A stretch of DNA of 64,000 bases from Patescibacteria group bacterium. GTDB taxonomy: Bacteria > Patescibacteriota > Minisyncoccia > UBA6257 > 1-14-0-10-40-38. The notes beneath the pieces were generated by a model. The model had not been told where the DNA came from and did no database searches. It worked only from the letters and a program-made list of their open reading frames with translations. The stretch covers positions 193,278-257,277 of the forward strand of contig JBBTRX010000002.1 of assembly GCA_038064975.1 (NCBI GenBank), read 5' to 3'. The translations under genes and the position numbers were made by a program. This document shows positions 1 to 38,175 of this stretch, one piece after another; within the stretch, counting starts at the first letter, position 1, and the number at the start of each line of letters is the position of its first letter.

Positions 1-680
1 ACGCCATCATCATCCACGATGATCGTTTCTGAATCTTCACAGGTATTCCCTAGAGTATCGGAACACATAATGGTATATATTGTTGATTTACTGATCGTTT
101 GGCTCATAGATCCGCTCGTTCCGCTCTGACCGGCGAGTCCGTCCGATCCGGTACAATCCACGGCATTCATAGAATCCCAAGAAATCTGGACTCCATCTCC
201 TTTAGAAGCAGAAGCATTAGAAACTGAAACATCGCAGGTGAGTTCTCCGCTTCCGGTAGACGGAACGCTTCCTAGTAATGTAAGCCATACATATCGTGGT
301 TGCCAAGACATACCGTTTGTAGTTTTGGCGAGAACGGTGTTGATAGCGCCAAATGACCCATTTGCAGAAATTCTTCCTCCACCTCCAATAGAGATGCTAC
401 CAATCACATCAAGCTTATGTGCAGGGTTTACTGTTCCAATACCAACCCGTCCAACGCTCGGTCCATTTCCTGCAACAACGAGGGTAGTAGGTGCGTTTTG
501 TGAAGTATTTAAAGCGATACCCCCTTGTTTTTGTTGTAATAATGAACTTTCATTGATCGCTGATTCTGGCACTGATCCTTGTGGAGCTCCTTGGGACGGT
601 TCACTCCAGGGGGTGGCGTAGGTGATAAAAACAAAAGCGAGTCCAAATCCAGACAAAAGAAAGAAAAAATATCGTTTCAT
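1..680 (-). CDS. secreted paralog C of a 3-gene family (5' start at 680, C-terminus beyond window edge); signal peptide, VGRVGIGTVNPAHKLDV motif, Cys-rich C-terminal part
   Basis: My own translation of the reverse strand from ATG at 678-680: MKRYFFFLLSGFGLAFVFITYA...VGRVGIGTVNPAHKLDVIGS... It is open to position 1. It is absent from the ORF track because no stop lies in the window. It is a paralog of 689..1282 and 1289..1876. Confidence 0.6.
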   Translation of the reverse strand, partial: MKRYFFFLLSGFGLAFVFITYATPWSEPSQGAPQGSVPESAINESSLLQQKQGGIALNTSQNAPTTLVVAGNGPSVGRVGIGTVNPAHKLDVIGSISIGGGGRISANGSFGAINTVLAKTTNGMSWQPRYVWLTLLGSVPSTGSGELTCDVSVSNASASKGDGVQISWDSMNAVDCTGSDGLAGQSGTSGSMSQTISKSTIYTIMCSDTLGNTCEDSETIIVDDDG

Positions 681-688
681 AGTTCCAT

Positions 689-1282
689 TTAAAATACGGC
701 GTAGCATGAACGAATACGATAGTAATGATTCGGGTAGGATGAGTCTGACAAACAGAGCTCGCTGTATTCCGTGTATCCCAGGTCGCTGCATTCTTGTGGT
801 GGAGCTCCTGTGCATCCTCCGACACCAATGCCTCCCACGAGCGTCATCCAGGAAAATCGATCGCGCCATTCTACGGTATTTCCGGTTCGTGAAAGTATTT
901 GCCCATTCACGCCCGCAGCTCCATTTGGTACGAACGCTCCATTATCAATACGAAGATTGCCAGAGAATATTTGTAGCTTCGCGATTTCTGGGAATGTACC
1001 GATGATGGGGGGCGCGATAGTAACTAAGCCGGTTCCTGCCGGAGCGCTTGCGGATGGCGGATTGCCGTCAACGGTAAGAGCTATCGTCTGTATACCGTCT
1101 CCCAACTGCACCCCCCCCGATTTTGCCTGCCCCGTTGCGGTGGTATTGAGTGGAGCAGACACTCCTCCTCCCGGATAAGGATTTGAAGGATTCTTCCATG
1201 GAGCGGCATATACAACAACTCCACTCGCAACAAAGAGTGCAAATAAAGAGATAATAAACGGGGATGTAGTAAAAATTTTCAT
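689..1282 (-). CDS. secreted paralog A (197 aa), N-terminal signal peptide, Gly/Asn-rich beta-type region, C-terminal Cys-rich module
   Basis: ORF track. The hydrophobic N-terminus is MKIFTTSPFIISLFALFVASGVVVYAAP. Architecture is shared with neighbours (…NPS..P.. / …G.GV.G…, C-terminal C..C..C). It is packed 8 nt from paralog C. Confidence 0.6.
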   Translation of the reverse strand: MKIFTTSPFIISLFALFVASGVVVYAAPWKNPSNPYPGGGVSAPLNTTATGQAKSGGVQLGDGIQTIALTVDGNPPSASAPAGTGLVTIAPPIIGTFPEIAKLQIFSGNLRIDNGAFVPNGAAGVNGQILSRTGNTVEWRDRFSWMTLVGGIGVGGCTGAPPQECSDLGYTEYSELCLSDSSYPNHYYRIRSCYAVF

Positions 1283-1288
1283 ACGTGT

Positions 1289-1876
1289 TTAAAAACCCTT
1301 TTTACATATTCTTGTCTGTTTGCCGATAGAAGATGTGCCGAGAGTTTCGGTGCAGGGAGGTGGGCTTACTGGAAAGAGTTCATGCATGATCCATCCTGAA
1401 GGACAAATGGGGAATATCTCCATACACCCGCCATATGCGGCGTCGTAAGTGTCTATGCGTTGTATGGTCAGCCATGCAATGTCCGATACCCATAATTGCT
1501 GGAGGGCATTAACGTTCGCAAGAATATCGTCTTTAGATCCAAAACCACCGCTCATAACAAGACTCCCTGTAAGACCAACGTTCCCATTTACATCAAGAAG
1601 TTCCTGCGGATTATTAGTGCCAATACCTACTCGTCCTGAAATAAGTTCAAGGCCGGAAAGTGCGGTTTTGTTTGTATTAAGATCAAGGCGTCCGAGTTTT
1701 GTTTGTCCGACTGGGCCGACATTGAGAGGTTCGGCAACATTAAGTTGCGGTGGATTATTGTTTGAAAAATTGATCCATCCGCCATAGCTCGTACGTGCAA
1801 GAAAGAAAAGAGAAATACCTAAAACAAAGAAGATAGAGTTAAAAATAATTTGCTTGGTTATATTTCGCATATCCAT
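1289..1876 (-). CDS. secreted paralog B (195 aa) with VGIGTNNPQELLDVNGNVGLTG motif
   Basis: ORF track. There is an N-terminal TM/signal segment, and the VGIGT-NP-x-LDV-G motif is shared with paralog C. The C-terminus is Cys-rich. Confidence 0.6.
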   Translation of the reverse strand: MDMRNITKQIIFNSIFFVLGISLFFLARTSYGGWINFSNNNPPQLNVAEPLNVGPVGQTKLGRLDLNTNKTALSGLELISGRVGIGTNNPQELLDVNGNVGLTGSLVMSGGFGSKDDILANVNALQQLWVSDIAWLTIQRIDTYDAAYGGCMEIFPICPSGWIMHELFPVSPPPCTETLGTSSIGKQTRICKKGF

Positions 1877-2131
1877 TTATTGGGCGGTAAGACGATCAAT
1901 AATTTTGGGATCAGGATATGAAGCAGAATCATCGTACGGTGCGGTAAGATTTTCCAGTACTTGTTCTTGGTCTAGTTCCGCTGGTCTTTTCGGAACGTCT
2001 TTCGTAACATTATCGCGTCGCATGATAGCAATGAAAAATATCAAAACAATAAGAATGACGACAAAAACTATTGCGACAAGAGTGTTGTGTGTTGGATGAT
2101 CGAAATCTTGAGGAGATTTTTTTTCAGGCAT
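1877..2131 (-). CDS. small single-pass membrane protein (84 aa), hypothetical
   Basis: ORF track. The hydrophobic core is LVAIVFVVILIVLIFFIAIM. Its stop abuts the start of paralog B, which gives operon-like packing. Confidence 0.4.
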   Translation of the reverse strand: MPEKKSPQDFDHPTHNTLVAIVFVVILIVLIFFIAIMRRDNVTKDVPKRPAELDQEQVLENLTAPYDDSASYPDPKIIDRLTAQ

Positions 2132-2189
2132 TACTTTAATAGCTTCAGTATAACGTAGAGAGTTGAAGTCTGCGAACGCGCCCTGTGGA

Positions 2190-4301
2190 TTACTCCAAGT
2201 GAATTTGCTTATGGAGCGTGTTCATTTTTTCTACGAGGAGTGGAAAAGCAGAAAGATCGGGACTTAAGGCGAGTGTTGCCTTCGCCGCAGTATGAGCGCT
2301 TTGGAGAAGATGTGGATCACGCAGGGCTTGCATGGCGATATCAGGAATTCCCGTTTGGCTACTTCCAAAAAATTGTCCGGGCCCGCGTAGGCGAAGGTCG
2401 TGTTCTGCAAGTTCAAAGCCGTTTTTCGCAGCAATCAGAGCTTTTAAGCGACTCTGCACCCCCTCGCTCTCTGATTCAGTAAATAAAAAACAATAGGACT
2501 GGTGCTCTCCACGGCCCACGCGCCCACGGAATTGATAAAGCTGAGCAAGACCAAAGTGTTCGGCGCCTTCAATCAGCATCACGGTTGCGTTCGGCACGTC
2601 TACGCCAACTTCAATTACGGAAGTTGAAACAAGAATATTACTCTCCCCTGCTTTAAACGCGCGCATGACGGCGTCTTTCTCTTTTCCTTTCATCCGTCCG
2701 TGGATCATCTGAACGGAAAGTTCGGGAAATATTGTTTCCGAAAGTCGCTTATATTCTTCGGTTACTGTTTTTGCGTCTAGCCATGCGGTATTTATTTTTT
2801 TCTTTTCATCATCCCCTGTTTCATTTTTTTCTATGCGTGGGCAAATAATAAACGCTTGGCGTCCTTCCGCAATTTGTTTTCGTAGAAACTCATACGCTCC
2901 AGTTCTTTTTTCCGGAGGAACAATATGGGTTTTAATGCTACGCCGTCCTTTTGGAAGTTCGTTTACAACAGAAAGATCTAAATCGCCAAAGAGGGCGAGT
3001 GAAAGCGTGCGTGGAATAGGAGTCGCACTCATGGAAAGAAAATGTGGCAAAACAGAATTTTCTTTTTTTACGCCCACGAGACGAGATCGTTGCTCTACGC
3101 CAAATCGGTGCTGTTCATCAATAATGACGAGCGCGAGATTTTTAAATGAAACATTTTTCTCAATGAGTGCATGTGTTCCGAAAACGAGTTTGACAGAGCC
3201 ATCAGCGATACCAGTAAGTATTCTTTTTTTATTTTTCGGTTCCAAGTCGCTTACTAAAAGATGGAGTGGAATGTTCCATTCGCGGAGAAGTTTGCCTAGT
3301 GTGTCGGAGAGCGTTCTATAATGTTGCCGAGCAAGAACTTCTGTCGGTGCCATAAAGGCGACTTGATATCCCTGTCGTACGGCGAGCAGTGCCGCAATCG
3401 CGGCAACAACTGTTTTTCCCGATCCGACATCCCCTTGCAATAGTCGATTCATCGGATGGGGTTCTGCCATATCAGCAAGGATTTGTTCAGTGCATGCCGA
3501 TTGCGCCGCAGTGAGCGTAAAAGGCAGATGACTCATGGCAATACTCGCTGTAAGTTCATCTCGAAGAATGGGAATTGCCTTCGCTCGCCCTAATGCTTCT
3601 CGCATTTTTGCATGCAGTAATTGAAGTAAAAAAAGATCTTCAAACGCGAATCTTCGGCGGGCAAGCTCCGCCTCTTCAATGGTTTCCGGAAAATGAATTG
3701 AACGGAGCGCATCTCTAAGCTCTGGCATGCCGGCGCTTCTTCGGACGGTTTCCGGGAGAAAATCAGGCAATGCCCCAAGAACATGGAGAATTGGTTTTAC
3801 AAGATAACGGATGCCGCGCGAAGTAAGACCTCTTGTTTCGGGATAGACCGGAACAAGACGTGCGGTGTGCCTATTCCCTCCGGTGCTTTGTGCCGGTTCA
3901 TATGAAGGGCTTGCAAGATAGAGTGAACCTTCGCGAGAAGAAACTTTTCCGGCAAAGTTTGCTTCCATACCGATCTGAAGCGTTTTTGCGATGAATGGCT
4001 GATTGAACCAGACTGCTTTTATTCCTCCGCTTGAGTCGGCAATAACAGCTTCCACGAGCGTCATTCTTCTCCGCCATGTTCTCCGCGATTCTATTTTCTT
4101 TACAATGCCTTGTATTGTTGCGGTTTCTCCGAGAGCGAGATCTGCGATGGAAGCGACACGGGTAAAATCTTCGTAGCGTGAGGGAAAATGCCACAGAAGA
4201 TTTTGAACGGTAAGAATACCCAACTTCTCTAATTTTGAGAGGAATGGTTTGCTGAGTCCCCGTATCTGTCCGAGGTTTGTTTTCAGCGTGATCGTATTCA
4301 T
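2190..4301 (-). CDS. recG: ATP-dependent DNA helicase RecG
   Basis: Helicase motifs GDVGSGKT and DEQHRFGV are present, with a RecG-like wedge/N-terminal region. The ORF track used a GTG at 4313. The ATG at 4301 (MNTITLKT...) lies just below the tRNA, so it is preferred. Confidence 0.9.
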   Translation of the reverse strand: MNTITLKTNLGQIRGLSKPFLSKLEKLGILTVQNLLWHFPSRYEDFTRVASIADLALGETATIQGIVKKIESRRTWRRRMTLVEAVIADSSGGIKAVWFNQPFIAKTLQIGMEANFAGKVSSREGSLYLASPSYEPAQSTGGNRHTARLVPVYPETRGLTSRGIRYLVKPILHVLGALPDFLPETVRRSAGMPELRDALRSIHFPETIEEAELARRRFAFEDLFLLQLLHAKMREALGRAKAIPILRDELTASIAMSHLPFTLTAAQSACTEQILADMAEPHPMNRLLQGDVGSGKTVVAAIAALLAVRQGYQVAFMAPTEVLARQHYRTLSDTLGKLLREWNIPLHLLVSDLEPKNKKRILTGIADGSVKLVFGTHALIEKNVSFKNLALVIIDEQHRFGVEQRSRLVGVKKENSVLPHFLSMSATPIPRTLSLALFGDLDLSVVNELPKGRRSIKTHIVPPEKRTGAYEFLRKQIAEGRQAFIICPRIEKNETGDDEKKKINTAWLDAKTVTEEYKRLSETIFPELSVQMIHGRMKGKEKDAVMRAFKAGESNILVSTSVIEVGVDVPNATVMLIEGAEHFGLAQLYQFRGRVGRGEHQSYCFLFTESESEGVQSRLKALIAAKNGFELAEHDLRLRGPGQFFGSSQTGIPDIAMQALRDPHLLQSAHTAAKATLALSPDLSAFPLLVEKMNTLHKQIHLE

Positions 4302-4304
4302 TTG

Positions 4305-4377
4305 TGCGCCCACCTGGATTCGAACCAGGGACCGTCTCCTTAAGAGGGAGCTGCTCTACCGACTGAGCTATGGGCGC
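4305..4377 (-). tRNA. tRNA-Lys (anticodon CTT)
   Basis: Manual cloverleaf. The acceptor is GCGCCCA/TGGGCGC. The D-arm is TAGCTCAGTCGGTAGAGC. The anticodon loop is CTCTTAA. The T-loop is GGTTCGAATCC. No CCA is encoded. Confidence 0.7.
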
Positions 4378-4389
4378 GTTACAGTGTTG

Positions 4390-4554
4390 TACGTCGCGTT
4401 TTGGTAAACTGCGACATCTTCGTCACTCTTCGCTTCATCGATAATCTTGCCTTAGGGTAGCATGTTGTTTTAGAAAAAAAAAGAGAGCGTATATGTAATA
4501 TAAAGTTCGTCGCGTTTTGCTAAACCGCGACATCTTCGTCGCTCTTCGCTCCTT
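4390..4554. repeat. two ~48-bp imperfect direct repeats (4390-4440 and 4503-4554), each with a GTCGCG...CGCGAC hairpin followed by ATCTTCGTCRCTCTTCGCT
   Basis: Direct sequence comparison shows about 44 of 48 identical positions. The repeats lie between tRNA-Lys and glgA. Confidence 0.6.
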
Positions 4555-10595: not shown

Positions 10596-10624
10596 TACAA
10601 ACTGAAATATAAGATTAAGCAAGT

Positions 10625-11581
10625 CTAATCGAAAATTTTAACTAAGTATTCGTCAATCTGCCTCTGCTCAAGATTATAGAAATCCTTATTCTGATCGTGT
10701 AAATATGTCGCGAGAGCAACTCCGACGAATCTCCAATGCCAGGGTTCAAAAATATAGTATCCATTGTTTTGTGGATAGGAGAGAATAAAACCATACTTAA
10801 ATGCATTATTTTGCATCCACGTATAAGCCGGAGTTTTATCAAAGCCATAAAGCTGTCCATTCAAACCCGTAGTTATGAAATCAGCGGTTGTTCCAAGTTG
10901 ATGCTCTGAATAGCCTTGATCAGCAGAAAATTGATTCGCCGTTCCGGCACCATAAGTCACCGTATAGGACGATTTCAAAGCTTCTTGTTCGTCAAAGCCG
11001 CGATAGGCCGATTTGACATAGATAGTTACTCCATTTGATTTTGCCGCGACAAGGAGGTTATTAAGATAAGGGAAGACACGCTCATGTATTTGTTCTGGTC
11101 GGTTTTCGCTATAGAGAAATTCTTTGCCAATTTCAACCACCCGTTCGGGAGCGTAGTGTTCATTCAAAAAGAATACTTTTGAATACTTCTGCAAAAGCTC
11201 CGGGTCGGTTTTGCTAAGTTTTTCCAGCGTTCCAACCGTGTTGGATATTACTCCAACCGTCTGTTCAAAGCCGCCGACTCGCGTTTGGACTCCTTCAATA
11301 TTCTGATTTGCAATGGAGAGTGTTTTAGAAATACCAAGAGATTCTTGTTCTAGGGCACCCGTCTTCTCATTTAATGTATTAATCGCGGTTGCGAATAGGG
11401 CAGTAGTAGAAGCGACTTCAGAAGAAAGCTGATCTATTTGTTTTGCAAGGGAATATGTCTGTATGTAGCCATACGTAAATAAACCGATGAGCACGGCAAT
11501 ACCGATTATTAAAGAACGATTGACTGATGAAAATTTTCTTACTTTTTGCCAATTCATGTGCGTGCTGAGGGGAGATCTCAC
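10625..11581 (-). CDS. D-alanyl-D-alanine carboxypeptidase, peptidase M15 (VanY-like), N-terminal TM and coiled coil
   Basis: Motifs SEHQLGTTADF and EPWHWRF are present. Confidence 0.8.
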   Translation of the reverse strand: MRSPLSTHMNWQKVRKFSSVNRSLIIGIAVLIGLFTYGYIQTYSLAKQIDQLSSEVASTTALFATAINTLNEKTGALEQESLGISKTLSIANQNIEGVQTRVGGFEQTVGVISNTVGTLEKLSKTDPELLQKYSKVFFLNEHYAPERVVEIGKEFLYSENRPEQIHERVFPYLNNLLVAAKSNGVTIYVKSAYRGFDEQEALKSSYTVTYGAGTANQFSADQGYSEHQLGTTADFITTGLNGQLYGFDKTPAYTWMQNNAFKYGFILSYPQNNGYYIFEPWHWRFVGVALATYLHDQNKDFYNLEQRQIDEYLVKIFD

Positions 11582-11685
11582 GTCGTCCGATTTTGCCGGA
11601 CTCCTTGAAACCCCTCGGTTTCAATAACTTCCGTCTCGGGAAAACTCCCGATTTTCCCGACCCCTTTCCCTGTTCGGATTCTGCG

Positions 11686-12138: not shown

Positions 12139-12210
12139 CGGCCCATAGCTCAAGGGCAGAGCATCCGTCTTATACACGGGGGGTTGCAGGTTCGAATCCT
12201 GCTGGGCCGA
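12139..12210 (+). tRNA. tRNA-Ile with anticodon TAT (UAU), reading AUA
   Basis: Manual cloverleaf: acceptor CGGCCCA/TGGGCCG, D-arm GCTCAAGGGCAGAGC, anticodon stem TCCGT/ACGGG, loop CTTATAC, T-arm GCAGGTTCGAATCCTGC. Confidence 0.65.
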
Positions 12211-12217
12211 CAACAAA

Positions 12218-18543: not shown

Positions 18544-19839
18544 TCAGAACGACGAATTTTGTTTTGCTGCCATAAGAGAAGTGATTGAGCTTTGTGCTTC
18601 TTGAATAGCGGCAGCAGGAAGCTTGCGTCCGTTTATTACGTCTTCAATTACTTTTGAGAGTATTTGTTCAACGGTTACATTATCAATCTGTGGCCATGAG
18701 CGTGCAGATAAGGCCTGTGTTGCAAAGACACCGAGTGAGGCATCGGTCTGTGCTATTTGAATAAGGGAACGGAGTGCCGGCGGTTTCCCCGTGCGGTCAG
18801 TATATCTTTTTCCTGCTGCGGGATCTGCTGTCATAGCGAGGATATAGCTCCACGCGCCGCTATAGTTCTGTGTTCTATTAGAAACACCGATACCCCAGTA
18901 GTTTCCGTAGTTTACAGACTTTGTGGATCCCGAAGGTTGTGGCAGAGGAGCCACGCGATATTTCAGAAACGGATTTTTATTTTCAATCGTCGGCATGTGG
19001 TAGGCGTAGCCCAGCATCATCGCAATGCTCTCGTCCGCAAATCCATCCAAAGAATTTTTGAACGTATCGGTCCACGTAAAGTTTTTGTCTGCGGGATTCG
19101 CAAAGTCAGTATAGAACTTAAGTGCCTGTGCTCCTTGTGATCCAAAATCGGCTCGAGAAAAATCGGAGGAAACCATAGGGGATCCCGATTGGAGCATGAG
19201 GAGAGAAAGGATGTCCGTCGCGCGGCTTATACTTTTATTTGATCCACCGATTGCTGCTCCTGCACGTACTACGCGACCTCCCGAATCAAGTTCACGGAGT
19301 CGAGGAATAAGATTTTGAAAATCCGTCCAAGTTGTTGGAGGAAGTGCGATGCCCTCGGAATCAAAAAGATCCTGATTGTAATAGAGCGCAAGCGTATCAA
19401 TAGAGAGTGGAAGGGCGTAGATGAGCCCGTCCGGAGCAAAATCTTGTTCTGCTACAGTCGGATATAATTGCCGGAACGTAGCAACGGTGAGCTGGCTCTC
19501 AGGAACTGGCGCAAGCTTGTCGTAGTGCTTCGGAATCCAGGTGTTATGCACCATGAACATGTCCGGCCCCTTCCCGGCAGCGAGAGCATTTACAAGCTCT
19601 GTTTCATAATTTTGCGGATCAAACTGGCGATAGGTTATCGCATACTGTCCCCCAAGTGCAGCCGTAAGCTCGTTAATAACAGCTGATGTTTCGAAAACTC
19701 CCCAAAACGTAAGGGCGGTTTTGTTTCTATCTTCCGGATTTTGGCGCCCGGGAATCACGCCGAGAAAAACAAGAACAAAAAAGATAATAACGAATCCTGT
19801 GATGCCAACGATAATCGCACGGGATTTTGGAATTGCCAT
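18544..19839 (-). CDS. extracellular solute-binding protein (ABC transporter SBP family 1-like), membrane-anchored
   Basis: N-terminal TM, about 430 aa, overall SBP_bac_1-like composition. No permease gene is adjacent. Confidence 0.5.
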   Translation of the reverse strand: MAIPKSRAIIVGITGFVIIFFVLVFLGVIPGRQNPEDRNKTALTFWGVFETSAVINELTAALGGQYAITYRQFDPQNYETELVNALAAGKGPDMFMVHNTWIPKHYDKLAPVPESQLTVATFRQLYPTVAEQDFAPDGLIYALPLSIDTLALYYNQDLFDSEGIALPPTTWTDFQNLIPRLRELDSGGRVVRAGAAIGGSNKSISRATDILSLLMLQSGSPMVSSDFSRADFGSQGAQALKFYTDFANPADKNFTWTDTFKNSLDGFADESIAMMLGYAYHMPTIENKNPFLKYRVAPLPQPSGSTKSVNYGNYWGIGVSNRTQNYSGAWSYILAMTADPAAGKRYTDRTGKPPALRSLIQIAQTDASLGVFATQALSARSWPQIDNVTVEQILSKVIEDVINGRKLPAAAIQEAQSSITSLMAAKQNSSF

Positions 19840-19873
19840 TAGTTACTATTATACAATGCACTGCTTCACAAAG

Positions 19874-19906
19874 TAAAAACTCCCTCTGGTTTAGAGGGAG
19901 TTTTTA
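19874..19906. terminator. terminator hairpin AAAAACTCCCTCT/AGAGGGAGTTTTT (3' of gyrA)
   Basis: Seen in sequence. Confidence 0.6.
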
Positions 19907-19935
19907 GATTCTATTTTCTAGTTACTAATTTCTAT

Positions 19936-22374
19936 TTAAAAACACGCAATCGCAACCAATCGATCTCCAGGACGGAGAGACATAATACGCACACCTTGCG
20001 TTGCGCGCCCTGCTACACGAACGGTTTTAATCGGAGTTCTGATGATTTGTCCTTTCGCCGAAATGGCGAGAATCTCTTCTTCTTCACCGATAAGTTTCGC
20101 GGAAACCATGGGGCCAGTTTTTGCCGTGATGCTTGCTGCTTTAGTACCGGATCCTCCGCGTGTTTGAATTCTGAATTGCGTAATTGGTGTTTGTTTGCCG
20201 TAACCGTTTGCCATAACCACGAGCAGGCGCTTACCTTCTTTTTCTTCGTCGCGCAAAATGTCCATTGAGCTTACGCCGTCGTTTTTCTTGAGGCGAATAG
20301 CGCGCACGCCGGAAGCAGTGCGTCCCATCACGCGGACGTTGGATTCTTTGAAACGAATAGATTGTCCATTTGCGGTTGTGATAATGATCTCGTCTTTTCC
20401 ATCTGTCATATCAACCCAGCGGAGCGAATCGTCTTTGTGAAGTTTAATCGCGATGATTCCAGTTTTTCGAACATTCGCAAAATCCGCAAGAGAAGTTTTT
20501 TTAATCATTCCCATGGAGGTGAGCATGACAAGAGACTTTCCTTTCGCTGCTTCGCCCTTCGTATCCGGATAGGCAATAATTGCCTGGATTTTTTCTTCAA
20601 GCGGAATTTCTAAAAAGTTATGTATCGGTTTTCCTTTTGCAGTGCGGGAGCTCTGCGGGATTTCCCAAACCTTTGTTTGGAATACGCGGCCGCGATCCGT
20701 GAAGAAAAGAATATTGTCGTGCGTTTTCGCGGTCACGAGGTGCGTCAAGAAATCGTCTTCCGAAACTTCGGATCCGATAAGTCCCTTGCCACCGCGGCGT
20801 TGGGTCTTGAATGTTTCCGGTGGAAGGCGCTTTACATAACCGGTTTGAGAGAACGTGATAACTGTATCTTCTTGCGGAATCAAATCTTCCTCGCGGAAAT
20901 CTTTAAGACCGGTTGCAACAACTCTCGTTCTTCGCGGGTCGGCGTATTTAGTCTTAATTTCTCCCAATTCCGTTTTGATAACCTCAAGAATTTTTTTGGA
21001 AGACGAAAGTAAAAGCTCTAAAGCTTTAATGAGTGTGTGCTTTTCTTTAAGTTCCTCGTCAATTTTTAGTCGCTCAAGTGCCGCTAATGTTTGCAGGCGC
21101 ATTTCCAAAATTGCGTTCGTCTGGAGTTCGGAAAGCTTGAATTTCTGCATCAAGTTATCGCGAGCATCGTCGCGGTCTTTTGATTTTTTGATCGTGGAGA
21201 TAACGGCATCAATGTTGTCCAATGCTTTCGCGAGCCCTTCTAATATATGGGCGCGTTCTTTCGCACGCTTCAAGTCAAACTCCGCACGGCGGCGTATTAC
21301 GACTTCGCGATGCGAAATATGTGCCTGAAGAATATCTTTTAATGAAAGTACTTGCGGCTGTATGCCGTCGACAAGCGCAATCATATTCATATGAAAATCT
21401 TTTTGCAGGTCAGTGTGTTGGTAGAGCTGGTTTAAAATCTTTTGAGGCGAAGCATCATTTTTAAGCTCAATAACAACGCGCAGGCCGTCTTTATCTGATT
21501 CGTCACGAAGATCTTTAATACCTTCAACTTTCTTGTCCTGTACAAGTTCCGCGATTTTAATAACGAGTTCGGATTTATTCACTTGGTAAGGAATTTCGGA
21601 AATAACAATATCAAAACCGTTCCGCGATTCTTTGCGTTCAACGACTTCTGCTACCGCGCGCATGGTGACCGGCCCTCTTCCTGAAGCGTAATTTTCCGCG
21701 ATATTTTTTGCGTCGTAGATAATACCTCCTGTTGGAAAGTCTGGTCCTTTTACAAAACGGACTAAATCCTGCACCGTCGCTTTCGGTTCATCAATCAAGT
21801 GAAGCGTTGCATCAATAATTTCTCCTAAGTTATGAGGAGGAATATTTGTCGCCATACCGACGGCAATACCGACTGCGCCGTTTAAGAGGAGCGTCGGAAG
21901 TTTTGCGGGGAGTACTTTTGGTTCTTCTCGGCTGTCGTCATAGTTCGGCTGCCAGTCAACCGTTTCTTTTTCGATGTCAGTCAAGAGTTCAGCTGCGATG
22001 CGCGAAAGCTTTGTTTCGGTATAACGCATGGCTGCTGCGTTATCACCATCAACTGATCCCCAGTTTCCTTGCCCGATGACGAGCGGATAGCGCAAAGAAA
22101 AATCCTGCGCCATACGGACGAGCGTATCGTAAATAGAAGAATCTCCATGGGGATGGTATTTTCCCATAACTTCTCCAACGACGTTTGCGGATTTGCGAAG
22201 CTTTGCGTCTGCGGTAAGGCCAGAGTCCCACATCGCCCAAAGAATTCTCCGTTGCACCGGCTTTAAACCGTCCCGCACATCGGGAAGCGCGCGCGAAACA
22301 ATAACAGACATCGCATAATCAAGATACGATTCCTGCAGTTCGCTGGTTATTTCTCGTTTTTCTACGTTATCCAT
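19936..22374 (-). CDS. gyrA: DNA gyrase subunit A
   Basis: The N-terminus is [29 protein letters not shown]. It is a full-length 812 aa topoisomerase A subunit. Confidence 0.95.
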
Positions 22375-35735: not shown

Positions 35736-36219
35736 GTATAGCAGAAATGAAGAGCGCACCCAGTTTTCCACACTTGCGCATCGTGAAATAATTGTTACTA
35801 TACAAAAAGCCCTTTCGTTTTTTTCCTCTCTGCTAACTCGGAGGACGAAGTGCCTAACGAAACTACAACGAGACCGTACGGAATTGAGAATGATCTCAAA
35901 ACAGGAAGAAAAGCTGTTTTCACCACGACACCAACTCTTGGAGAGATTCATTCCGCAGCGTTTGATGAGTTTCGGGATATTCCCTTGCACTGTCTTGAGG
36001 TGACGAGCAGACCCAATAGTCACCTCGTCATCTTGCAGGTTCGCTCCACTCCGGCAAGCGGCGGATAATCAGAAGAGATGGGAGAAATCCCGTATACCAA
36101 AAGCGTCCGGCAATGCCGGACGCTTTCCTTATACTAATGCACAAACTAACTGCTTCGCATCTCGAGGAGCGAGGAGCGACGAAGATATCGTAACTTAGTA
36201 AAGTGCGATAAGCCTTGTT

Positions 36220-38175
36220 CTACAAGAGAAACGGAACAATAAGCAATGCAACGATATTCATTACTTTAATCAAAGGATTAATCGCTGGACCAACAGTGTC
36301 TTTATAAGGATCTCCCACGGTGTCTCCGGTAACAGCTGCTTTATGCGCGTCTGATCCCTTACCGCCGAATTTACCGTCTTCAATATATTTCTTTGCGTTA
36401 TCCCAAGCGGCTCCTCCGGTCGTCATGGAAATTGCCATAAAGATTCCGGAAATGATTGAGCCGATTAAGAACCCTCCGAGCGCTTCCGCGCCGAGCAGAA
36501 AGCCAACAGCGATAACCGCGAGAATTGGAATGAGCGCAGGAAGGATCATTTTTTTAAGCGCTGCCGTGGTTACGATATCAACTGCGCGTCCGTAGTCAGG
36601 CTTCGCTGTTCCTTCTAAGATTCCCGGTATTTCGCGGAACTGGCGGCGCACTTCTTCTACAACTGCCCCAGCTGCCTGTCCTACCGCGAGCATGGCGAGC
36701 GATCCGAAGAAGTAAGGAATCATGCCTCCCAAGAATAGTCCGATGATGACGCTTGGATTTTGAAGATCAAAGAGAACGGTCGGTAATTCTTCCGCGTAGC
36801 CTGCAAAGAGTACGAGCGCGGCAAGTCCGGCGGATGCGATGGCGTATCCTTTCGTAACTGCTTTTGTAGTGTTGCCTACTGCGTCCAATGCGTCCGTCAC
36901 TTTGCGTACGTCATGGGGAGCGTTAGACATTTCTGCGATGCCGCCTGCGTTATCCGTAATCGGTCCGAACGAATCAATCGCGACAATGATGCCGGCAACG
37001 GAAAGCATTGAGGTTGCTGCTATCGCGATGCCGTAGAGACCGAGTAAGGAGTAGCTCCCCCAGATTCCGGCTACGATAACGAGAATAGGAAGAATGGTGG
37101 ATTCCATACCAACCGCAAGGCCCATAATAATATTGGTGCCGTGTCCTGAATTTGATGCCTCTGCGATGGAGTGGACTGGGCGATATTTTTTAGACGTATA
37201 GTAATCCGTAATCACAACCATGAGCGCCGTGACTCCAAGGCCGATCAAGCTTACCCAGAACACGCTCAAAGCTTCATCAGGGACAAACATCTTTGCCGCG
37301 AAGTAGAAAAGAACTCCTGAAATAACGAGCGATGCAATGAGTCCTTTGTAGAGTGCTCCCATAATGTTGCCCGTGGATCCGAGTCGTACAAAGAGTGCAC
37401 CGATAAGGGATGCGATGATAGCGAGTCCACCCAAGATAAGGGGGAAGAGGACATTTCCTACCCCTGCACTGACAGCAAGAATGAGGGCGGCCGTAAGCGT
37501 TACGGCATATGTTTCAAAAAGATCTGCTGCCATACCTGCGCAGTCGCCGACATTGTCTCCCACATTGTCTGCGATGACACCCGGATTTCGCGGATCGTCT
37601 TCAGGAATTCCAGCTTCAACTTTTCCGACAAGATCAGTTCCCACATCTGCGGCTTTGGTATAAATTCCTCCGCCTAATCGTGCGAAGACAGAGATTAAGC
37701 TTGCGCCGAAGCCGAGGGCGATAAGCGCTGTGATGTCTTCTGTCGCGAGATAAAACCCTGCTACCGAGAGAAGTCCAAGTGCTACGACAAGAAATCCGGT
37801 CACTGACCCTGCTCTAAAGGCGAGCGAGAGTGCGGGAGCGAGACCTTGGCGTGCAACTTCCGCGGTGCGTGCGTTTGCACGAACGGCGATTTGCATTCCG
37901 ATTACGCTTGCGAGCGTGGAAGCGAGTGCTCCAATTAAAAATCCTATTGCGGAGGTTATATTGAGCGTAACCGCAATAATTACGAAGAGAATGATGGCTA
38001 CAACAGAGACGGCGCGATATTGCCGTTTAAGATACGCGGATGATCCTTCGCGGATTGCATCCGAGATGTCCTGCATTTCTTTATTTGGCTTTGGGCGCTT
38101 CTGCATCCAAAAAATAATTCCTGCGCTGTAAAGTATGGCTGCGGCAATCGGAGCAAAAATGATGGTATTCAGCAT
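36220..38175 (-). CDS. hppA: membrane-bound proton/sodium-translocating pyrophosphatase
   Basis: [20 protein letters not shown] and [21 protein letters not shown] motifs, with a multi-TM architecture. Confidence 0.95.

Follow-up and report, generated by a model that had tools for sequence, protein, structure and literature searches.

Among the described systems closest to the genes considered here, the MAT (mosaic adhesive trimer) fibres of Bdellovibrio bacteriovorus are displayed on the cell surface and serve as adhesins for prey recognition; their N-terminal end is conserved, and their tip varies (PMC10769870). The pattern V-G-[GN]-pi-x-x-P-x-x-x-L has been described as a capping loop, which sits at the edges of a trimeric, intertwined beta-helix, and is common to MATs, to S74 phage fibres (T5 pb1 and K1F endosialidase), and to MyRF (Caulton et al. 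2024, PMC10769870). In the Saccharibacteria, host binding requires lectin-like proteins that are encoded in type IV pilus (T4P) loci and have no PilD-type signal (PMC11623550). Here, we analyzed a stretch of 64,000 nucleotides (hereafter, the window) from the metagenome-assembled genome (MAG) of a groundwater member of the Patescibacteria (Candidate Phyla Radiation, CPR), an ultrasmall bacterium, and in particular three consecutive genes at the start of the window, designated A, B, and C. Cultivated Patescibacteria live as episymbionts. To our knowledge, type IV pili and a small number of lectin-like pilus proteins are so far the sole factors characterized in how the Patescibacteria, a very abundant and mostly uncultured group, find and attach to their hosts. 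On balance, the sequences make a role of A, B, and C as trimeric tail-fibre-like adhesins for host recognition probable; with one unit each, they would be minimal members of their family and possibly associated with a pilus. They belong to a recurrent module of three families that has no model in Pfam, NCBIfam, or PADLOC and that has the fibre chemistry found in phage tail fibres and in the prey-recognition fibres of Bdellovibrio.

Architecture of the three paralogs

The three genes lie on the minus strand and are tightly packed. Paralog A (195 aa) occupies positions 1289..1876 and was delimited by its open reading frame (ORF), BLASTP, profile, and cysteine pattern; paralog B (197 aa; 689..1282) was delimited by its ORF, BLASTP, and cysteine pattern. 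Paralog C opens with the ATG at 678-680 and continues past the window edge, so that the first 226 of its 357 aa are encoded at positions 1..680; the full gene lies at 10603-11676 of the extended locus (L001). The original prediction, made from the window alone, had correctly described three consecutive co-oriented genes with the third leaving the window edge. The spacing of 8-9 nt that it gave should read 6 nt (A-B) and 8 nt (B-C), and its length of about 195 aa holds for A and B but not for C. In NCBI, the three genes are entered as AAB407_01450/55/60, all as "hypothetical protein", and the start chosen there gives 193 aa for paralog A, versus 195 aa for the ORF.

The three proteins are paralogs, as had been claimed: pairwise BLASTP across the N-terminal ~140 aa was significant in all combinations (A-C, 3e-8; B-C, 7e-15; A-B, 5e-4). 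No DNA-level repeat involves positions 1-2131; the duplications are therefore old and without a repeat pair of the type associated with diversity-generating retroelements, and both a target of such an element and a recent duplication were rejected as candidates. Further paralogs past the window start, which the original prediction had suggested looking for, were found by profile search neither in the next 10 kb nor elsewhere in the window.

Each protein consists of a predicted Sec-type signal peptide, a conserved head, one fibre unit, and a C-terminal knob with four cysteines. The predicted signal peptide, which had been noticed in each of the three copies, is a single hydrophobic segment with a small-x-small site directly before the conserved Trp (SYG↓G in A, VYA↓A in B, and TYA↓T in C, the arrow marking the predicted cut). 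It comprises residues ~1-32 in paralog A, and cleavage is likely at VYA↓AP in B and predicted at TYA↓TP in C. In 31 family members, the A/G of the site lies 0-2 residues ahead of [WF]-[TSQ]-x-P and therefore fits cleavage by signal peptidase I; the signal peptide is probably cut 0-2 residues ahead of the conserved Trp. The head that follows, with the consensus A↓W-T-E-P-T-x-x-P-P-x-x-N-V-x-A-P-[IL]-N-x-G-x-x-x-Q-x-K-x-G-G-L, has the form W-x-x-P...P-L-N...Q-x-K-x-G (GWINFSNNNPPQLNVAEPLNVGPVGQTKLG in A, PWKNPSNPYPGGGVSAPLNTTATGQAKSGG in B, and PWSEPSQGAPQGSVPESAINESSLLQQKQGG in C).

The fibre unit, present in one copy per paralog, has the consensus GNVGIGTxxPxxKLDVxG...GxxGQ[VI]LxSxGxGxxW. It reads RVGIGTNNPQELLDVNG...GGFGSKDDILANVNALQQLW in A and RVGIGTVNPAHKLDVIG...NGSFGAINTVLAKTTNGMSW in C; in B, a degenerate capping loop (IIGTFPEIAKLQIFSG) is followed by an intact second half (NGAAGVNGQILSRTGNTVEW). 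The second half is retained in all three paralogs, and that of B aligns with the G-x-x-G-Q-V-L-x-S-x-G-x-G-x-x-W of repeats in giant proteins.

Paralogs A and B have four cysteines each, all in the knob (C151, C158, C175, and C191 in A (CPSGW); C157, C165, C177, and C193 in B). Paralog C has 14, and its portion beyond the window edge comprises a Cys/Gly-rich insert of ~170 aa and a 4-Cys knob; the earlier description of the family as Cys-rich comes down to these counts. The C-termini have no significant pairwise BLAST similarity to one another and share the scaffold C...(N)P...C-P-S-G-[WFY]...C-x2-4-end, in which the last Cys stands 2-4 residues from the end. The same scaffold is found in small family members from six other CPR loci or genomes. 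The 4-Cys knob is likely the binding tip.

Relation to known fibres

The motif VGIGTxNPxxxLDVxG is exact in A and C and degenerate in B, in agreement with the original prediction of the motif in two of the three copies. The capping-loop pattern is likewise present in A (VGIGTNNPQELL) and C (VGIGTVNPAHKL) and degenerate in B. A profile was built from the shared N-terminal ~120 residues and searched against 1.84 billion representative proteins at E<=1e-3. It matched 38,562 proteins, far past chance, so the motif is not low-complexity noise. The best matches are proteins of 1-7.7 kaa with 15-50 copies of the unit each. Among PDB sequences, the profile matched only MAT fibre proteins of Bdellovibrio bacteriovorus (8ojn with E 1.3e-4, then 8ond/Bd2133, 8ol4, 8oml, and 8on4) and MyRF. 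Paralog A alone matched MyRF (7dc3, residues 18-69, E 0.0013), and P0125, a 599-aa relative with the same head, matched Bd2133 (8ond) with E 1.8e-10. Together with the published definition of the capping loop (PMC10769870), these matches substantiate the earlier statement that the motif is typical of beta-structure segments of phage tail fibres or endosialidase chaperones.

A, B, and C themselves, however, lack the chaperone domain. No match to the S74 chaperone domain (PF13884, Peptidase_S74) was obtained in A, B, or C even at E<=1, and the segment of A aligned to MyRF reads GSKDDIL, with no Lys at +5 and so no S-D-x-x-x-K dyad. The domain is present in relatives: P0129 and P0147 end in Peptidase_S74, and so does a 674-aa head-bearing protein (F674 of locus L017; E 1.8e-9) encoded next to gene D, the partner gene described below. 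This last protein ties the CPR family directly to S74-type fibres. Since the motif, the PDB matches, and the S74-bearing relatives support the link to fibres, a role of A, B, and C as surface adhesins or receptor-binding proteins is a reasonable prediction.

In A, B, and C, a Sec-like signal leads directly into the conserved ~35-aa head, an arrangement reminiscent of the MATs, in which a signal peptide precedes a conserved N-terminal module. Both families also carry units with the capping loop V-G-[GN]-pi-x-x-P-x-x-x-L, which in A, B, and C would likewise be part of a trimeric beta-helix. The MATs and the family to which A, B, and C belong both vary at the C-terminal end, with members with and without an S74 domain, and both occur in bacteria that must attach to other bacteria. 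The MATs are, however, ~600-1,100 aa long with many units, whereas A, B, and C have one unit each in 195, 197, and 357 aa (head-bearing relatives of 600-3,500 aa exist). The tip is a 4-Cys knob here and a TNF-like, C-type lectin, or beta-sandwich domain in MATs, and the operon partners and pilus-locus context described below have not been described for MATs. The S74 phage fibres (T5 pb1, 4UW8; K1F endosialidase, 3GW6) and MyRF have the capping loop and the fibre unit in common with A, B, and C. The S74 fibres carry PF13884 with the S-D-x-x-x-K dyad; A, B, and C have neither, whereas P0129, P0147, and the L017 protein have PF13884. A, B, and C are cellular, predicted to be Sec-exported, and encoded away from phage tail genes, whereas S74 tail fibres are components of the virion.

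That A, B, and C are a prophage remnant or a phage-derived tail-fibre cassette without a cellular role is what weak matches of the motif to PHROG tail fibres (E 0.006-0.1) and matches to phage S74 and tail-fibre proteins in BFVD would suggest. We consider this very improbable. No phage genes were found near the module, whose neighbors are recG, tRNA-Lys, and glycogen metabolism genes, and all three paralogs have predicted Sec signal peptides. Moreover, the module is chromosomal and kept across many CPR lineages in association with D, a small membrane protein, and pilus genes. A profile scan of viral contigs gave one locus only, with a scan pattern that was too narrow, and there was no PADLOC match. 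A prophage origin was therefore rejected for want of phage context, and a defence system was rejected because PADLOC gave no match.

A head of ~35 aa directly after the signal peptide is common to a subset of the profile matches (P0125, P0143, P0008, P0047, and P0053), with the consensus A↓W-T-E-P-T-x-x-PP-x-G-N-V-x-AP-[IL]-N-V-G-x-x-x-Q-x-K-x-G-x-L. The proteins bearing it range from ~150 to ~3,500 aa, which mirrors the logic of the MATs, a conserved presentation end with a diversified distal end; we propose that the head is a constant presentation or docking end. We define a head/fibre (F) family by a signal peptide, the pattern [WF]-[TSQ]-x-P...PP-x-x-N...P-[ILV]-N/H...Q-x-K-x-G, at least one fibre unit, and an adjoining gene D on the same strand. 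A, B, and C conform to this pattern, and the profile match starts at position 1-2 in all three. The loci recovered for the F family are almost all from CPR MAGs.

Two members of the family are worth recording separately. P0002 (L003 2737-6138), the sole weak relative of A, is a head/fibre protein of 293 aa with two units, encoded directly upstream of an 838-aa TraG/VirD4-like ATPase (DUF87/DUF8128); this arrangement hints that, in this genome, P0002 is linked with a type IV secretion-like system. A 452-aa head-bearing member (L075 12168-13523) has a Hint/intein-like segment (sub-threshold matches to Pfam Hint, Vint, and PT-HINT), which suggests that some F members have an autoprocessing C-terminus, besides those with an S74 domain.

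A conserved module of three families

Paralogs A, B, and C are flanked by two further genes on the same strand. The first gene of the module encodes TM84, an 84-aa bitopic membrane protein (1877..2131, minus strand; ORF and hydrophobic window), which is separated from A by 0-6 nt depending on the ATG chosen. The last gene, D, lies just outside the window start at L001 11676-12620 and overlaps the stop of C by 1 nt, so that the order of the tightly packed operon is TM84, A, B, C, D. The D protein (314 aa) is predicted to be exported and has G[YH]AWSxN[LI]GWIxF and GGWDGWIKL repeats with a weak, sub-threshold PKD-like C-terminus. Its profile had no match in PDB, and no family in Pfam, NCBIfam, PHROGs, or PADLOC was matched above threshold by A, B, C, TM84, or D. 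D is homologous (3e-20) to a 435-aa GYAWSENIGWITF-repeat protein in locus L005, and it might be a PilY1-like tip protein.

We scanned one genome per GTDB species by using the alignment of D alone, independently of the fibre motif, and obtained 80 loci, nearly all from Patescibacteria MAGs. With L005 added, the counts below cover 81 loci (1.15 Mb). The head/fibre profile detected 51 F proteins in them, and every one of these was on the strand of D (51/51); the distance to D was at most 3 kb for 49 and at most 100 bp for 19. F and D occurred together in 40/81 loci, always on the same strand. The F matches usually open at positions 2-7 of the profile and at residues ~26-35 of the protein, immediately behind a signal peptide, and many of these F proteins are small (150-300 aa). 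Tandem F genes were also found (four in locus L032, three in locus L075, and a pair in several others), for a copy number of 1 to 4.

TM84 has a short N-terminal tail, one transmembrane helix (about residues 17-36), and an acidic tail with VLENLTAP and, at the C-terminus, IIDRLTAQ. Small ORFs with a single transmembrane segment stand directly upstream of the module in at least 19/72 loci, and many of them have h-h-x-x-L-T-A-P repeats, one of which lies only a few residues from the C-terminus (e.g., ...IIESLTAPE and ...VIKSLTAPSR). The C-terminal LTAP feature is enriched 66-fold directly upstream of the module (6/53 versus 8/4,143 ORFs; Fisher p = 8e-9). This enrichment and the VLENLTAP/IIDRLTAQ tail make TM84 a genuine module member, and the 84-aa protein that occupies the equivalent place in L005 is weakly similar to TM84 (BLASTP, E 0.004).

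Motif and fibre architecture as such are already known; no curated model exists for the head/fibre, D, or LTAP families, and the D family is Patescibacteria-wide. We found no published description of the membrane protein/F/D module in the literature searched, the coverage of which was incomplete. The original prediction had overlooked the conserved N-terminal head, the Cys knob, the module, and its link to type IV pili. It had noted the co-orientation with the small membrane protein and with recG (2190-4313), and both are indeed on the minus strand. However, recG does not recur in the other loci listed; a functional link to it was rejected, and recG is a mere neighbor, not a member of the module.

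The F-D module was also found on contigs L007, L060, and L065, which are labelled Bdellovibrionales and Pirellulales. On L007, which bears the Bdellovibrionales label, the neighboring genes are housekeeping genes only, with 40-43% GC; either mis-binning or a real spread to predatory bacteria may account for the occurrence.

At L001 13649-19639, outside the window and ~1 kb past D on the same strand, is a gene for a 1996-aa SpvB/TcdB_toxin_midN/RHS-repeat protein resembling polymorphic toxins. It is followed (19652-20275) by genes for two multi-transmembrane proteins of 89-90 aa, which could be immunity proteins. With this toxin-like protein ~2 kb past the end of C, and with C-termini of the disulfide type in A, B, and C, the three paralogs might be taken for secreted, Cys-stabilized, effector- or toxin-like peptides working with the RHS/Tc-type toxin. 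We give this explanation very little credence: the fibre unit and the head are structural, fibre-type elements, and the conserved partners in the 81 loci, where RHS proteins were neither part of the search nor screened for, are D, the LTAP protein, and pilus genes.

Linkage to type IV pili

P0143, an F protein of 1043 aa, is encoded inside a T4P cluster in L005. The gene order there is pilM, pilO, pilB, response regulator, pilT, pilC, pilin, pilD, the 84-aa transmembrane protein, P0143, the 435-aa D homolog, and three minor-pilin-like genes; the order of the transmembrane protein, F, and D is identical to that at the window locus. With the L005 proteins as queries, T4P machinery was detected within 10 kb in 26/81 loci. 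As a rough estimate without a computed control, a random 20-kb stretch of a ~1-Mb genome would include one of 1-2 pilus loci in perhaps 3-6% of cases. The order that recurs is pilM-O-B-T-C-pilin-pilD-[TM]-[F]-D-minor pilins, and its part pilD-[TM]-[F]-D-minor pilins was found as a contiguous arrangement in about a dozen loci (L005, L013, L018, L028, L029, L037, L044, L048, L062, L065, L070, and L079).

This linkage bears on whether A, B, and C instead belong to the type IV pilus itself, as accessory subunits or tip subunits similar to PilY1 or PilX. The head would then cap the tip complex of minor pilins or be inserted into it, and the fibres would be displayed at the tip of the pilus and not on the cell body. 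Besides the T4P genes within 10 kb and the placement between pilD and minor pilins, a precedent speaks for this possibility: PilX1 and PilX2 of Saccharibacteria are lectin-like proteins of T4P loci without a PilD-type signal, and PilX2 is needed for efficient host binding (PMC11623550). When compared by description only, A, B, and C resemble PilX1, PilX2, and the PilY1 of Pseudomonas and Myxococcus in being exported (as predicted for A, B, and C) and in having no PilD-type signal. PilX1, PilX2, and PilY1 are encoded in T4P loci beside minor pilins and are proposed to be host- or glycan-binding tips, and relatives of the A/B/C module have the same genomic position.

The proteins themselves fit this explanation less well. 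A, B, and C have no class III signal (G↓FTLIE) and no match to Pfam N_methyl, on which ground canonical pilins were rejected; the motif G[FYW][TS][LIVM][LIVM]E is absent from every ORF of the window. The hydrophobic segment is followed by a Pro-rich head, not by a long pilin alpha-1 helix and a globular domain. PilX1 and PilX2 combine a pilin helix and a globular pilin domain with a jelly-roll or beta-propeller, and PilY1 is a large beta-propeller protein, whereas A, B, and C are of the fibre type and have no pilin domain. Pilus genes were found neither in the 64-kb window nor in the 10 kb past its start, and in about two thirds of the loci none were within reach, although many of the contigs are truncated. 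We therefore hold an identity of A, B, and C as pilus-tip subunits to be rather doubtful, while a looser association of the fibres with pili remains part of the adhesin reading.

Proposed role and points against it

If A, B, and C are host-recognition adhesins, they would be co-expressed with TM84 and D, exported by the Sec pathway, and then trimerize through the fibre unit, which would supply the capping loop and the strands of an intertwined trimeric beta-helix. The head would dock the fibre to a surface partner, for which TM84 (the LTAP protein), D, and a type IV pilus tip are the candidates; the fibres may accordingly be displayed on the cell body, at the pilus tip, or by TM84 or D as a dedicated dock. 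The small, putatively disulfide-stabilized knobs would touch surface structures, probably glycans, of the host bacterium that carries the episymbiont, and the three paralogs would supply three different tips. Whereas paralogy, homology of the motif, domain layout, conservation of the module, and its linkage to pilus loci were demonstrated here, we infer secretion with cleavage, trimerization, surface display, adhesin function, and pilus association. A role in host recognition or binding is suggested by the precedent of the MATs, the episymbiotic life of cultivated Patescibacteria, and the recurrent placement in pilus loci.

As the fold is trimeric in solved relatives and there are three genes, whose spacing of 6-8 nt suggests co-translation, A, B, and C could assemble as one heterotrimeric fibre with one chain each instead of three homotrimers. 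We think this unlikely, because related loci have anywhere from 1 to 4 copies of F, because C exceeds A and B in length by 160 aa, and because the solved MAT and S74 fibres are homotrimers.

Several results weigh against the reading of A, B, and C as trimeric adhesins. When A, B, and C were used as single queries, homology searches retrieved the three proteins and the one weak relative, P0002, but nothing else, and phmmer of C had no match in PDB. Taken singly, the sequences are thus almost without relatives in the database, and the whole argument depends on similarity at the profile level. At ~35 aa, the head falls far short of the beta-rich N-domain of MATs (~130 aa), to which it is likened by position. 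One fibre unit may be too short for a stable beta-helix. The locus itself has no pilus genes over the range given above, and the same holds for about two thirds of the other loci.

Structure prediction gave similarly limited agreement. An AlphaFold2 monomer of A (alignment of 32 rows) had a pLDDT of 65 and a pTM of 0.29; the N-terminal helix (residues 3-29) was confident, the loop region (~80-100) fairly confident, and the remainder poor, as expected of one chain from a probable trimer. The N-terminal segment, modelled as this helix, could be an uncleaved anchor instead of a signal peptide. The single-sequence model of C had a pLDDT of 33.6. In a Foldseek search of the model of A against 350,542 PDB chains, no match was significant (best E 0.17); all of the top 15 were MAT fibres or MyRF, and those of their local matches that span 28-36 residues had an rmsd of 1.3-3.0 A and an identity of 36-50%. 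Matches in BFVD were weak and enriched in S74/ICA-domain, tail-fibre, and C1q-tip phage proteins. The fold check proposed with the original prediction therefore came out divided: the loop has local, non-significant matches to MAT fibres and MyRF, and whole-fold similarity to tail-fibre or adhesin folds was not obtained.

As a wider and more tentative possibility, the LTAP protein, F, and the GWIxF protein may together form a new Patescibacteria-wide apparatus for host recognition, in which fibre trimers would sit on, or be handed to, type IV pili or a membrane dock. It would be the CPR counterpart of the Bdellovibrio MATs, and the tandem mini-fibre paralogs would set the host range. If they are host-range determinants, these genes would be concrete targets in the cultivable Saccharibacteria systems, and the head motif, the fibre unit, and the Cys knob would provide a signature for predicting host-interaction genes in metagenomes.

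Other features of the locus

The module is surrounded by recG, tRNA-Lys, glycogen metabolism genes, D, and the RHS protein. Between recG, taken from the ORF list, and TM84 is a spacer of 58 nt (2132..2189, minus strand), which has a sigma-70-like site (TTCGCA-18-TATACT, 2176 to 2147). This site may be the promoter of the operon; the region has no more sites of this kind than expected after shuffling, and the call therefore has positional plausibility only.

A direct repeat of 46 nt (4389-4434 and 4505-4550; 91% identical) lies between tRNA-Lys and a glycogen-synthase-like gene. An inverted match of 71 nt to this repeat region, 76% complementary, was found 31.6 kb away at 36154-36224; no Rfam family matched. 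At 12139-12211, ARAGORN detected a tRNA-Ile with the anticodon TAT, whereas most bacteria use a tRNA-Ile with a CAT anticodon that is modified by TilS.

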